Assembly (NCBI GenBank): GCA_964549615.1
Contig: CAZJVP010000090.1
Coordinates: 8,107-72,106, forward strand
Source of the DNA: an uncultured Thermococci archaeon
GTDB taxonomy: Archaea > CAYQAE01 > CAYVLA01
DNA length: 64,000 bases
Direction: 5' to 3'
The notes beneath the pieces are model-generated. The model did not search any database and was not told the DNA's origin. It was given only the letters and a program-made list of their open reading frames with translations. Every line of letters begins with the position of its first letter. Position 1 is the first letter of the stretch. Both the position numbers and the translations under genes were made by a program. This document shows positions 38,375 to 43,068 of this stretch, piece by piece.

Positions 38375-38459
38375 TAGGACCCCTAGCCAAGCAAGAAGTG
38401 CTCGCCGCCACGGGCTTAAATGTGGCCCACCGGCGCTCCCGGCCGGTGGGCTTGAGAAC

Positions 38460-40703
38460 CTACAGGTAGGAACCGGGCTCCTCCCTCGTCGGCTTCTCCT
38501 TCTTCGCGATCTCCATCGCCGACCGCCTGAACCTCTTCGAGAGGGCCATATAGCTCTCGAGCTCCTCCGGCGACATGGGCTGAATCTTGGACATCGCCTT
38601 CTCGAAGTGCTCCGCCGTCACCACCGCCTTGGACAGCCCATCCTTGTCCATCTTGCCCCCGGAGGAAACGTACTGCCTGATCGCCAGCATCACGGCTTCG
38701 TTGCAGATGGCCGCGATGTCCGCGCCGGTGTAGTTCTCGGTCTTCCTAGCCAGCTGCTTGAGGTCGACATCCGGCGCGAGCGGTTTGCCCCTCGTGTGGA
38801 TCTTGAATATCTCCAGCCTCGCTTCCTCGTCCGGCGGCGGAATGTAGATTGCCCGGTCGAACCTGCCCGGCCTGAGCAGGGCTGGATCGATTATGTCAGG
38901 ACGGTTGCTGGCCGCAATCACGGTGACGTCGTTCAGGTCCTCCAATCCGTCTATCTCGGTCAGGAACTGGCTTATCACCCGCTCCGTCACGTTGGAGTCA
39001 CCGAACATGCGCCCGCGCACGGGCACGATCGAGTCTATCTCGTCGAAGAATATGATGCACGGAGCTGCCATCTTTGCTTTCCTGAACGTCTCCCTCACCG
39101 CCTTCTCGCTTTCGCCCACCCACTTGGACAGGAACTCCGGCCCCTTCACGCTTATGAAGTTGGCCTCGCTTTCCGTCGCCACCGCCTTGGCCAACAGGGT
39201 CTTACCCGTCCCGGGCGGGCCGTAGAGCAGGATCCCCTTGGGCGGCCTTGCATTCATGTGCGAGAACAAGTCGCGGTACTTGAGCGGCCACTCCACCGAT
39301 TCCCTCAACTCCTGCTTCGCCTCCGCGAGGCCGCCGATGTCCGACCAGTGGACGTTGGGGCTCTCCACCAGGACTTCCCTCAGAGCCGACGGCTCCATCT
39401 CCCTGAGGGCACAGAAGAAGTCCTCCTTGGTCACCCTCAGGCTGTCAAGGACCTCGGCCGGGATGCTCTCGGCCTCTAGGTCGATCTTCGGCAGTGCCCT
39501 CCGGATCGCCCTCATCGCGGCCTCCTTGGCGAGCGCCGCCAGGTCGGCACCAGTGAAGCCGTGGGTGACGTCAGCCAGCGCCTGAAGGTCGACCCCGTCC
39601 AGCGGCATCCCCCTGGTGTGTATCATGAGTATCTCGTGCCTGCCGCTTCTATCGGGTATCCCTATCTCTATCTCCCTGTCAAACCTCCCGGGCCTTCTCA
39701 GTGCGGGGTCTAGGGCATTCGGCCTGTTGGTAGCACCTATGACGACCACTTTGCCCCGCGCCTCAAGGCCGTCCATGAGGGCCAAAAGCTGGGCCACGAC
39801 CCGCCTCTCGACCTCCCCCGTCACCTCCTCTCGCTTGGGCGCGATGGAGTCTATCTCGTCGATGAAAACGATGCTGGGGGCGTTCTCTTGGGCCTGTTTG
39901 AAGATCTCCCTCAGGTTCTCCTCGCTTTGGCCGTAGTATTTGCTCATTATCTCCGGTCCGCTCAGGCTGTAGAAGTTAGAGCTCGTTTCCCCCGCGACGG
40001 CCTTGGCCAGGAGGGTCTTCCCGGTGCCGGGCGGTCCGTGAAGGAGCACTCCCTTGGGCGCCTCGACCCCGAGCTTTTCGAAGAGCTCCGGATGCCGCAG
40101 GGGTAGCTCTATCATTTCCCTCACCTTCTGGATCTCGTCGCCGAGCCCCCCGATGTCCTCGTAGGTCACCCTAGGCACTCCGGCGAGGACCTGCGGAGCC
40201 GGCTTCTCGCTTATCGTGACCGTGGTGTTATCCGTGATCATCACGGCCGGTCCCGCAGGCTTGGTCGATACGACGGCTAGGTTGATCTTGTTGCCCATTA
40301 TTGCAAGCTCTATGATATCCCCCTTGGTCACGACCCTCCCTTCCAAGAGCCTCGCAATGTAGGGCTCTGCATTGCGAATGCGAAGAGGCTCGGTCGGGGC
40401 AAACCCGATGGACTCGGCCTCATGTGCCTCCGCAAGCTTGACAGTGACCTTCTCGTCTATGGACACCCCGGCATTTCGACGCGTAACCGCATCGATCCTA
40501 ACCGTGCCCGTGCTGACATCCTCCAGATAGCCGGGCCAGGATATTGCATAGGTCGTCCTCTTCCCCTGGATGGACACCACGTCCCCCGACGTGAGTTTGA
40601 GTCTCTCCGCGATCTGCGGGTCGATCCTCGCTATACCCTTGCCGACGTCTCTCTGTCGAGCATCGGCAACCCTAAGAACTGCCGAATTCTGCGGCTGCGC
40701 CAT
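38460..40703 (-). CDS. CDC48/VCP-like AAA+ ATPase (two AAA domains)
   Basis: N-domain plus D1 ([15 protein letters not shown]) and D2 ([15 protein letters not shown]) Walker A motifs, with second-region-of-homology motifs. Confidence 0.9.
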
Positions 40704-40704
40704 T

Positions 40705-41322
40705 TCACAATTCCTCCTCCGAAATCACGTTCATTTCCCGGAGCCTCGTTAGCACGTTCCTGACCATCTCCTCTCTCAGACCGAGACTCCTCGAGACATC
40801 TGAAAGCGTGAAGTGCTCATGAGCCAGGATGTAGTGTAGCACCTCTCTCTCCTCGTAGTCGCTGAACAGATTCTGCACGATCTGTCTCGCCCTCCACAAG
40901 TGCTCTTCCTTGTCCCGTATGAGGTCCAGCATCTGCTTGTCCACCATCGAGATCTGCCGGTTTATCTCGGTCAGGCTCTCCCGAAGCTTCATGAGGTCCT
41001 GCGGATTTGCGTTCTGAGCAGGCCGGGCTTCGTTATCCTTGTGCTCGTCTGAAAGCTCTCCGATCCTTGCCTCGAAAAGGCTGGGCGTCATGTCCAACCG
41101 CAAAGATATTCGCTTGGCCGCCACGTAGCACTTGCGGGCCGGGCCCATCTTGCTCTCCGTTCTCGTACAGCGGACGATCCCGTGCTTCTCGAGGAGGTCG
41201 AGGTGCTTCATCACGGCCTGCACGCTGAGCCTGAGCTCTTTGGCGAGTTGGAGTGGATAGTGCGGCTCTACAGCGAGCCTCCAGAGTATCCTCCTCCGCG
41301 TCGGGTTCTCCAACAACATCAA
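40705..41322 (-). CDS. Winged-helix (ArsR-like) transcription regulator; candidate Phr/HSR1-type heat-shock regulator
   Basis: N-terminal wHTH ([44 protein letters not shown]). Sits between hsp20 and cdc48; its stop is 2 nt from the cdc48 start. Confidence 0.6.
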
Positions 41323-41401
41323 AAGGTCGTCAAGCTCGGGCAGAAGAGATACCTCCTCGAGAAAAAGGAGAGGCCCCTTCGCGTGAAGGGGCGAATCGAG
41401 A

Positions 41402-42040
41402 CTACTCGATCTCGATCTTCTTGCCCTTCCTGGCGGGGCCGGACTTCTCTAGGACCACCTCAAGAACTCCGTTGTTGTACTTGGCCTTCGCGGATTCCGG
41501 CTTCACTGTAACCGGGAGGTCTATGTCCTTGTAGTACTTCCTCTTCTCTGTGTCAACCCTGATGCCCAGGCTGTTCTCGGTGGTTTCCAGATTGATGTCG
41601 CTCTTATCGACCCCGGGCAGCTCTGCCGTCACTATGACTTGCTTATCGGTCTCTTGCACGTCAACCAACGGCTCCCTCCCGCCTGGCAGGCCCTCTCTCA
41701 TCCCAGATGCGATCCCCCTTATGTTGCCGAATTCCTCGATGTGGGGAATCCCATCCGGGCCCATACGCATCGACCATCCATAGACGTAGGGCCCGCCCTC
41801 CTCGGGCGACTTCAACTCGCCCCTTCGAGCCTTCTCGAAGAGACGGTTCATCTCCTCCCTCATCTGCCTCATGCTCTCGTCGAACTCTCTGAAGAAATCG
41901 CTCCTGTCAAAGAAGCTCCTGCCAAAGAACTCATCCTCTATCCAATCAAACGGGTCCCGCCTTCGGGGCCTTCTTGTCCACCAAGACATCCCCATCACCT
42001 CTCCTTCTTTTTTTGAGGTCGTGCTTGACGGTTGGCCCAA
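41402..42040 (-). CDS. Hsp20/alpha-crystallin small heat shock protein
   Basis: ACD domain ...VIVTAELPGVDKSDINLE...AKYNNGVLEVVLEK. Start may be the downstream M16. Confidence 0.85.
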   Translation of the reverse strand: MGQPSSTTSKKEGEVMGMSWWTRRPRRRDPFDWIEDEFFGRSFFDRSDFFREFDESMRQMREEMNRLFEKARRGELKSPEEGGPYVYGWSMRMGPDGIPHIEEFGNIRGIASGMREGLPGGREPLVDVQETDKQVIVTAELPGVDKSDINLETTENSLGIRVDTEKRKYYKDIDLPVTVKPESAKAKYNNGVLEVVLEKSGPARKGKKIEIE

Positions 42041-42065
42041 GCGGCCGCAGGCAATGCAGCCCCCT

Positions 42066-42090
42066 GGTTATCAACCTGAAGTTAATAACT
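42066..42090 (-). promoter_or_regulatory. Candidate Phr/HSR1-type operator (AAC-N5-GTT) between the TATA box and the hsp20 start
   Basis: ggttatCAACctgaaGTTaataact was read directly. A TATA element (ttttatatta on the minus strand, 42098-42108) lies just upstream. Confidence 0.45.
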
Positions 42091-42192
42091 GCCGAGGTAA
42101 TATAAAAACTTAACGCTTCAGCGCCTTCGGAGCCAATCTGCTGCAAATACCGGCATAGCAACCGCTTTATCCGGGCCGTCCAACGCCCGGGC

Positions 42193-43068
42193 GTGGGTTT
42201 CCCACGCGAGCGCCCGGCCATCAAGCCATCCGTGGCCCTGTCCATCAGCGTCGCCTCGGCATCGACGGCCGCAATACTCATCCGTCTTACGTCCGCACGC
42301 CCGCTCGCGATCGCGGCCCTCAGGATGAGCTTCGCAGCGCTGTTGTTGCTTCCCTTCCTTGGAGTCGAAGGTGTTCGCCGGTTGACCATGCTCGATCGGA
42401 GGGACGCGAGAGCACTTCTGGCCATAGGGTTCTGCCTGGCCATGCACTTTGCTCTCTGGGTCACCTCGTTGCGATACACGTCGGTTGCGGCATCTGTTCT
42501 CATGGTTTCGACGTCGCCCATCTTCGTCGCGCTCTTTGGTAGAATGCTTCTGCGCGAGAGAATTGCCTCGATGGCGGCAGTGGGAATAGCGCTGGCGATC
42601 GCGGGAATGGCGTCGATCGTCCTATCCCGCGGCGCGCTGCCGGGAGATCTTCGGGGCACAACGATGTCCATCCTCGCGGCAGTAGCGGTGTCCGGGTACC
42701 TCATCGGGGGAAGGAGGCTTCGGCAGAGGGTCGCACTGGTCACCTACGCCTTCTGCGTCTACGCCGCGGCCGCCATGGTCCTCCTCATCATGGCCGCCTT
42801 CACCGGGGCAAAGCTCGTTGGCCTGCGGCCCAGGGATTATGCAATGCTCATCCTGCTGGGCATCGTCCCAAGCCATCTCGGCCACACGCTCTACAACTAC
42901 CTGCTGAGGTATCTCGACGCAAAGGTAATCGCCGTGTCGACTCTGGGGGAGCCGCTTCTCTCCTCGCTGCTCGCCTACGCGATCTTGGGCGAGTCGCCGG
43001 GGGCCGCGATGTTCCTCGGGGCACCGTTGGTTCTTCTTGGCATCTACCTCACGGCAAAGGCAAGCTAG
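42193..43068 (+). CDS. EamA/DMT-family transporter
   Basis: Ten predicted TM helices in two internally repeated halves. Confidence 0.65.
   Translation: MGFPRERPAIKPSVALSISVASASTAAILIRLTSARPLAIAALRMSFAALLLLPFLGVEGVRRLTMLDRRDARALLAIGFCLAMHFALWVTSLRYTSVAASVLMVSTSPIFVALFGRMLLRERIASMAAVGIALAIAGMASIVLSRGALPGDLRGTTMSILAAVAVSGYLIGGRRLRQRVALVTYAFCVYAAAAMVLLIMAAFTGAKLVGLRPRDYAMLILLGIVPSHLGHTLYNYLLRYLDAKVIAVSTLGEPLLSSLLAYAILGESPGAAMFLGAPLVLLGIYLTAKAS

Follow-up and report, generated by a model that had tools for sequence, protein, structure and literature searches.

A predicted Phr/HSR1/SurR-type operator in front of an hsp20-regulator-cdc48 gene cluster from an uncultured archaeon related to Hadarchaeota

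Introduction

To our knowledge, Phr and HSR1 are the only archaeal heat-shock regulators that have been studied experimentally, and both come from hyperthermophiles. The present analysis concerns a gene for a related regulator that lies between hsp20 and cdc48 on a 64,000-nucleotide stretch of contig CAZJVP010000090.1 (assembly GCA_964549615.1; this whole stretch is referred to below as the window) from an uncultured archaeon, together with a predicted operator upstream of hsp20. A first-pass annotation of this DNA had proposed a heat-shock operon with a Phr/HSR1-type operator at this position.

The 29-bp binding site of Phr overlaps the transcription start, and bound Phr keeps RNA polymerase away from TBP/TFB (PMC9133787). 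The HSR1 site, CTAAC-N5-GTTAG, is located upstream of its own operon; for both proteins repression or binding is reported to be lost at high temperature, and no partner requirement has been described (PMC9133787). A small heat-shock protein (sHSP) and an AAA+ ATPase are found in both regulons (PMC10653856). Phr and HSR1 were assigned to arCOG01684, which is described as occurring in most euryarchaea, as linked with CDC48 and HSP20 and as ancestral (PMC5852551). SurR recognizes the motifs GTTn3AAC and GTTn3AACn5GTT, and a site downstream of the TATA box leads to repression (PMC12162507, PMC6316755).

Results

The hsp20 promoter and its predicted operator

Three open reading frames (ORFs) were arranged head to tail on the minus strand in the order hsp20, regulator, cdc48 (Table 1). 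The first-pass annotation had described this trio, and the gene identities were confirmed by Pfam, NCBIfam and TIGR01243. The hsp20 product matched HSP20 (Pfam) and scored 184 bits against the NCBIfam archaeal Hsp20 equivalog (cut-off 140). The cdc48 product contained CDC48_N, CDC48_2 and two AAA domains and reached 1106 bits with TIGR01243 (cut-off 803). The regulator ORF (40705-41319/41322, approximately 205 amino acids) encoded an ArsR-type winged helix-turn-helix (wHTH) domain (HTH_20, E 2e-13), with weaker TrmB and TFIIE-alpha matches at residues 147-203. All three genes had been included in the annotated cluster, but its limit had been set at 40705, whereas the cluster reaches 38460.

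The minus strand upstream of hsp20 reads GCGTTAAG-TTTTTATA-TTACCTCGGCA-GTTATTAAC-TTCAG-GTTGATAAC. The operator string quoted earlier (ggttatCAACctgaaGTTaataact, plus strand 42066-42090) was found to be exact, and the TATA box was present at 42108-42098, where the minus strand reads TTTTTATATTA. The site had been placed directly between this TATA box and the hsp20 start codon. It does abut the TATA box, since the palindrome begins 11 nt after TTTTTATA, but the start codon lies 71 nt farther downstream.

The AAC-N5-GTT core on which the earlier prediction relied is present. By itself, however, the bare core is no proof of a site: 12 copies were counted in the window against 6.7 +/- 2.6 expected, a number reached in 5 of 100 shuffles, and the other 11 cores are at chance level. 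The distinguishing feature is the complete 23-bp palindrome GTTn3AACn5GTTn3AAC, which had one match in the 64 kb against 0.02 expected. A weight matrix built solely from 107 sites in other genomes gave the operator 29.7 bits; the runner-up in the window scored 5.8, and the maximum over 50 shuffled windows was 16.4. Neither the matrix scan nor mismatch searches returned a second operator in the window. The sequence agrees with the HSR1 core and also with the long SurR motif GTTn3AACn5GTT, the latter on both strands.

Archaeal TATA boxes are usually centered at -26/-27 relative to the transcription start. From this distance, and from the TATA box 11 nt upstream of the palindrome, the hsp20 start is predicted at approximately 42078, within the central spacer of the operator. 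The earlier proposal that the site overlaps the transcription start, a position reported for the Phr site (PMC9133787), agrees with this prediction.

Conservation of the operator across relatives

Eighty related loci were collected by a scan of species-representative genomes. In 71 of the 80, an AAC-N5-GTT core was present no more than 170 nt before the first gene of the cluster, compared with a mean of 3.6 loci (maximum 9) in composition-matched shuffles. Core density was 5.6/kb in those upstream regions and 0.21/kb elsewhere. Altogether, 219 cores were recorded in 688 kb, 110 of them less than 260 nt upstream of hsp20, regulator or cdc48 genes. Where loci had separate promoters, additional sites were found before hsp20 or cdc48.

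The consensus derived from the 107 sites was GTWnWYAAC-N5-GTTRWnWAC. Conservation extended symmetrically to flanking positions that had played no part in selection: G at -6 (79 of the 107 sites), T at -5 (86) and A at +15 (83). Exact matches to the SurR recognition motif (GTTn3AAC / GTTn3AACn5GTT) occurred at the promoters of 49 of the 80 loci. The family-wide position of the TATA-like 8-mer relative to AAC most often began at -24; in the window it begins at -25.

In 11 close-clade loci, a BRE-like block (resembling the TFB-recognition element; GCGTTAAG, GGTTAGG or AGTTAGG), the sequence TTTTTAT and the operator were kept at fixed spacing. The neighboring sequence varied, and the 11-12 nt spacer between TATA box and operator and the 5' leader were free to do so. 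On sequence comparison this is a classical phylogenetic footprint, and the operator prediction is thus supported by comparative genomics.

Some Thermoplasmata promoters (L010 5852-5876, L014, L018, L073 4932-4962 and L079 1820-1850) carried a pair of operators that overlap with a shift of 14 bp (AAC-N5-GTT-N3-AAC-N5-GTT). Such an overlap can arise because GTTn3AAC is a palindrome in its own right, and it hints at possible adjacent binding of more than one dimer at these promoters.

Relatives and gene context

The closest relatives, with 52-54% regulator identity, were found in metagenome-assembled genomes (MAGs) labelled Candidatus Hadarchaeota. The remainder belonged to Thermoplasmata and Methanomassiliicoccales, some of them lineages of the gut and rumen. 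A metagenome scan added only three more close loci. The regulator gene was linked on the same strand to cdc48 and/or hsp20 at 53 of the 80 loci, or 45 of the 58 with enough flanking sequence. Gene orders among relatives were hsp20-regulator-cdc48 (Hadarchaeota-like), regulator-cdc48-hsp20, regulator-hsp20-cdc48-hsp20 and regulator-cdc48. The first of these was seen in all nine further close-clade contigs, so that the difference from the Archaeoglobus order remarked on in the first-pass annotation is typical of the Hadarchaeota-like clade.

Approximately 500-1000 nt lay between regulator and hsp20 at a number of loci (L004, L016, L030-L033, L045-L049 and others). Many Methanomassiliicoccales loci carried a second operator-bearing promoter, for hsp20-cdc48-hsp20, at a distance of 0.4-1 kb from the regulator. 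Two contigs from Acutalibacteraceae and Faecalibacterium bins (L042 and L058) contained an archaeal regulator-cdc48 locus with nearly the layout of a Methanomethylophilaceae locus (L070); judging by this sequence, they are probably archaeal contigs misbinned in bacterial gut MAGs.

Homology and structure of the regulator

The earlier proposal required a regulator related to Phr/HSR1, and alignment and profile comparison bore out a relationship to Phr. Among all solved structures, Phr of Pyrococcus furiosus (2p4w) was the top match (phmmer E 2.2e-13, residues 3-151). SurR (PF0095; 2quf/2qlz) was a close second (phmmer E 1.8e-12), with regulator residues 3-194 aligned to 8-202. A profile built from 29 family members matched Phr at E 1.3e-25 and PF0095 at E 3.2e-24, and Foldseek ranked Phr first (E 1.4e-9, template modelling score 0.48) and SurR second. 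The best NCBIfam match was SurR (NF047699; 62.8 bits over the full length, cut-off 250); Phr_regulator (NF053602) matched residues 2-139 only (E 7e-14, 51.8 bits, cut-off 320). Comparison with SurR by hhalign gave a probability of 98.6% over 187 columns. Phr and SurR aligned with each other at 39 bits over the N-terminal 86 residues only and are less alike than either is to the window regulator. In a profile search, the best 120 matches were all Thermoplasmata-type proteins.

The AlphaFold model (mean predicted local distance difference test score 89.5) comprised a wHTH domain (residues 1-88), a helix of 46 residues (106-151) and, at the C terminus, an HTH of three helices (155-195). The CxxC switch of SurR (C23/C26; L-T-C-M-E-C-Y-F) aligned to L-A-V-E-P-H-Y-P in the regulator. 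No CxxC redox switch was present at this position across the whole family, which has an invariant ExHYPLQL there and no cysteine. Two other cysteines, C51 (~41169-41167) and C64 (~41130-41128), are located on the two wing strands, and the Hadarchaeota-like clade has kept both (VRC...RKCY). The Thermoplasmata members, in which operator and context are the same, lack C64. A clade-specific thiol sensitivity via C51/C64 is possible. By sequence and predicted fold, the regulator is best described as an ArsR-like protein of the Phr/SurR group, with the architecture of SurR but without its sensor.

Relatives start the regulator with ATG, GTG or TTG at a position where the window has CTG (41343-41341). 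This CTG stands 7 nt past a strong Shine-Dalgarno sequence, GGAGGT (41356-41351), and was also present in two independent JGI (Joint Genome Institute) assemblies. The codons upstream of ATG 41319 still encode the conserved PELDDLL. Translation would begin either at the CTG or eight codons later at ATG 41319.

Leader, hairpins and probable transcript ends

A hairpin with a T-run follows hsp20 (Table 1). Each sequence was folded singly, as consensus folding was disturbed by loop indels; all 10 close loci had a 6-8 bp GC hairpin ten to sixteen nt past the hsp20 stop codon, and 9 of them had a run of five or more Ts. The 58-82 nt gap between hsp20 and regulator contained neither a TATA-like box nor a second operator in the window or its close relatives. 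The hairpin and T-run probably curb read-through into regulator and cdc48, giving partial termination and an attenuated 'operon'. In P. furiosus, hsp20 transcripts end mainly straight after the gene (PMC10746257). The regulator stop codon and the cdc48 start are separated by 1 nt, a junction kept in every close locus. The perfect 9-bp hairpin seen in the window just beyond cdc48 probably marks the 3' end of the transcription unit. In relatives, a KTI12-like kinase gene lies between cdc48 and a GATase1-like gene; the window has no such gene.

The predicted hsp20 leader (41996-42078) folded at -40.3 kcal/mol, more stable than shuffles (z -2.6), and a 5-bp helix in it paired ACCUC with the Shine-Dalgarno GAGGU. 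An RNA thermometer was nevertheless dropped as a candidate: leader length and sequence are not conserved in relatives, and their leaders have no conserved anti-Shine-Dalgarno. The Rfam search gave no match for the leader or the palindrome. The leader fold is therefore probably not an RNA thermometer. Among identical contigs, hsp20 was called as either 195 or 197 amino acids.

An EamA-family transporter gene diverges from hsp20, and this pairing was syntenic in the close clade (L081, L090, L091, L092). A shared bidirectional promoter was considered and rejected because EamA has its own CTTTAT box (window, L090/L091), approximately 28 nt before its start codon. This suggests a leaderless EamA transcript with no TATA box in common with hsp20. 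A sigma-70 promoter scan returned one match, which is chance level and not relevant to an archaeon.

Table 1. Features of the hsp20-regulator-cdc48 locus (coordinates are those of the window)
Feature	Coordinates	Strand	Remarks
BRE-like element GCGTTAAG	42109-42116	minus	directly 5' of the TATA box; putative function
TATA box TTTTTATA	42101-42108	minus	A/T run goes on to 42098
Predicted operator GTTATTAAC-TTCAG-GTTGATAAC	42067-42089	minus	23-bp palindrome
hsp20 5' leader	41996-42066	minus	Shine-Dalgarno GGAGAGGTGA at 42004-41995
hsp20	41402-41995	minus	197 amino acids; alternative start 41989 gives 195 amino acids
Terminator-like element	41362-41392	minus	hairpin GCCCCTTC-ACGC-GAAGGGGC (41392-41373), then T5 (41366-41362)
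Regulator, Phr/HSR1/SurR-type	40705-41343	minus	called start ATG 41319 (204 amino acids); homologous start CTG 41343-41341 (212 amino acids)
cdc48 (VAT-type double AAA+ ATPase)	38460-40703	minus	747 amino acids
9-bp hairpin CCCACCGGC-cgggagc-GCCGGTGGG	38426-38450	minus	just 3' of the cdc48 stop codon
EamA-family transporter gene	42193-43068	plus	upstream stretch 42160-42192

Discussion

The locus is, in our judgement, probably a negatively autoregulated stress unit (heat-shock/proteostasis) of the Phr/HSR1 type, from an uncultured archaeon related to Hadarchaeota. One promoter, consisting of the BRE-like element and the TATA box (42116-42101), would drive hsp20, with transcription predicted to start in the middle of the palindrome (42089-42067). 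The regulator, encoded one gene downstream of hsp20, most likely binds this palindrome as a dimer. When bound, it would keep RNA polymerase from the TBP/TFB complex, as shown for Phr. Inactivation of the repressor, by heat on the analogy of Phr and HSR1 or else by proteotoxic stress, would allow strong transcription of hsp20. Most transcripts would probably be halted after hsp20 by the conserved GC hairpin and T5. The fraction reading through would supply the regulator and the translationally coupled cdc48, and repression would be restored.

Several points weigh against this interpretation. The regulator is, by its sequence scores, orthologous to neither Phr nor SurR, being far under both NCBIfam cut-offs. 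SurR, a redox and not a heat regulator, shows as much similarity and recognizes the same motif, and the signal therefore cannot be read from sequence alone. Members of the family are found in mesophiles of the gut and rumen too, so that a simple thermal inactivation in the style of hyperthermophiles is not assured. Outside the close clade, the distance from TATA box to site varies. The relatives are phylogenetically non-independent, which inflates the locus counts, and the regulon and its autoregulation are supported by genomic evidence only.

Four other explanations were weighed. If the regulator were a SurR-like redox or sulfur switch, released from the same motif on oxidation, the cluster would answer oxidative or sulfur stress. 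Full-length similarity including the C-terminal winged helix, the best NCBIfam score (62.8 bits), the exact long SurR motif in the operator (PMC12162507) and the wing cysteines C51 and C64 conserved in the close clade are all compatible with this. The SurR CxxC (C23/C26), however, aligns to A-V-E-P and is absent in the whole family, the linked genes encode a chaperone and an unfoldase and not hydrogenase or sulfur functions, and C64 is not conserved in the Thermoplasmata members with the same operator and context, which makes such a switch very unlikely. It is less likely still, and indeed exceedingly improbable, that the palindrome functions in the RNA, by forming a hairpin in the leader of hsp20, or that a factor other than the adjacent regulator binds it. 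The 23-mer, if transcribed, could form a 9-bp hairpin, and the stability of the window leader (z -2.6) was noted above. What is conserved, however, is sequence (AAC, GTT and the outer GT/AC) and not pairing: the arms outside the core were complementary in only about half of the 107 sites, with no consistent covariation. The predicted start within the palindrome would leave the left arm untranscribed, Rfam gave no match, and the motif travels with the regulator gene, standing in front of it (71 of 80 loci).

The genes may also be merely adjacent, with hsp20 monocistronic, regulator and cdc48 expressed from an unrecognized promoter of their own, and no autoregulation through the hsp20 operator. 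The conserved terminator-like element directly after hsp20 would fit this, as would P. furiosus, where the primary stop of hsp20 follows the gene immediately and the genes have separate starts (PMC10746257). We regard it as quite unlikely, given the lack of any TATA-like box or second operator in the 58-82 nt gap in the window and close relatives. In relatives with the regulator gene first, moreover, the operator is always on the regulator's own promoter, and autoregulation is for this reason taken as the rule of the family. A different proposal concerns the sensor: it might be the state of protein folding in the cell, rather than temperature as such, that inactivates the repressor, for instance by titration or unfolding involving Hsp20 or the co-translated Cdc48. 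Bacterial parallels for the control of repressors by folding state are HrcA-GroEL and HspR-DnaK. The 1-nt spacing of regulator and cdc48 in every close locus is in line with this, and the occurrence of the system both in mesophilic gut Methanomassiliicoccales and in hot-habitat lineages argues for a sensor that does not depend on one temperature. Against it, tight gene spacing is common in archaeal operons, and the Phr/HSR1 literature describes no partner requirement (PMC9133787); the proposal is doubtful, although with a real chance of being correct. A broader variant would take the Hadarchaeota and Thermoplasmata proteins as the ancestral form of Phr, HSR1 and SurR, a two-winged-helix repressor acting at GTTn3AACn5GTT(n3AAC) at the hsp20/cdc48 start, with SurR of Thermococcales as a later redox re-use. 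Mesophilic gut methanogens retain this module too, and for that reason sensing would depend on feedback from the co-translated Cdc48 or from Hsp20 and not on unfolding of the repressor by heat. This variant appears rather unlikely; if true, it would amount to a chaperone-titration circuit not yet described in archaea.

Under the preferred reading of an autoregulated Phr/HSR1-type unit, the locus adds a member, from a phylum that has received little study, to a known regulatory system; that this system is widespread had been inferred before. The existing picture is confirmed and extended, not overturned. Together with its 80+ relatives, the locus gives a clear candidate operator, GTTn3AACn5GTTn3AAC, and a candidate regulon (hsp20, cdc48 and the regulator) across Hadarchaeota, Thermoplasmata and Methanomassiliicoccales, among them mesophiles of the gut. 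These loci also show that a single DNA-recognition pattern is common to heat-shock regulators and to SurR, a sulfur regulator. These results help the annotation of 'ArsR family' genes in many archaeal genomes, and the cultivable Methanomassiliicoccales offer a place in which signal sensing can be studied.

Comparison with Phr, HSR1 and SurR

In both Phr (PF1790) and the window regulator, a long helix follows the ArsR-type winged helix at the N terminus. In both cases a palindromic site is located just downstream of the TATA box and over the start (predicted in the window). Phr is autoregulated, and its regulon, like the window cluster, contains hsp20 and a AAA+ ATPase of the Cdc48/VAT type (PMC9133787, PMC10653856); the primary stop directly after hsp20 in P. 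furiosus (PMC10746257) is a further likeness. Identity between the two regulators, however, is only approximately 25-30%, and the alignment ends near residue 150, beyond which the window regulator continues into a C-terminal domain of three helices, winged-helix-like, that matches profiles of SurR, TrmB and TFIIE-alpha. In Pyrococcus, phr is located apart from hsp20 and the AAA+ gene, each target having its own site, and the published Phr site is TTTA / TGGTAA / AAAA and not GTTn3AAC.

The likeness to HSR1 (AF1298, Archaeoglobus fulgidus) rests on operator and context. The AAC-N5-GTT core is contained in CTAAC-N5-GTTAG, the regulator is clustered with hsp20 and autoregulated (PMC9133787), and the regulon comprises an sHSP and an AAA+ ATPase (PMC10653856). 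Among relatives of the window regulator, those from Thermoplasmata have the Archaeoglobus-like order regulator-cdc48-hsp20, whereas the window has hsp20-regulator-cdc48 with a single operator before hsp20. The operator flanks also differ (family consensus W-Y-AAC, HSR1 C-T-AAC).

SurR (PF0095, Thermococcales) is similar to the window regulator over its full length, with a wHTH, a long helix and a C-terminal wHTH (PMC12162507). Its motif, GTTn3AAC or GTTn3AACn5GTT, is likewise matched, and its repression from a site downstream of the TATA box has a counterpart in the repression predicted for the window (PMC12162507, PMC6316755). The two differ in the CxxC redox switch, which the window regulator does not have, and in their genes: SurR targets hydrogenase and sulfur-reduction genes, whereas the neighbors in the window are chaperone and unfoldase genes. 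Of the earlier Phr/HSR1 label, the relationship to Phr is retained, but the protein is not a Phr orthologue; since SurR is equally close, with the two-wHTH architecture and the motif in common, the family is best named Phr/HSR1/SurR-like.

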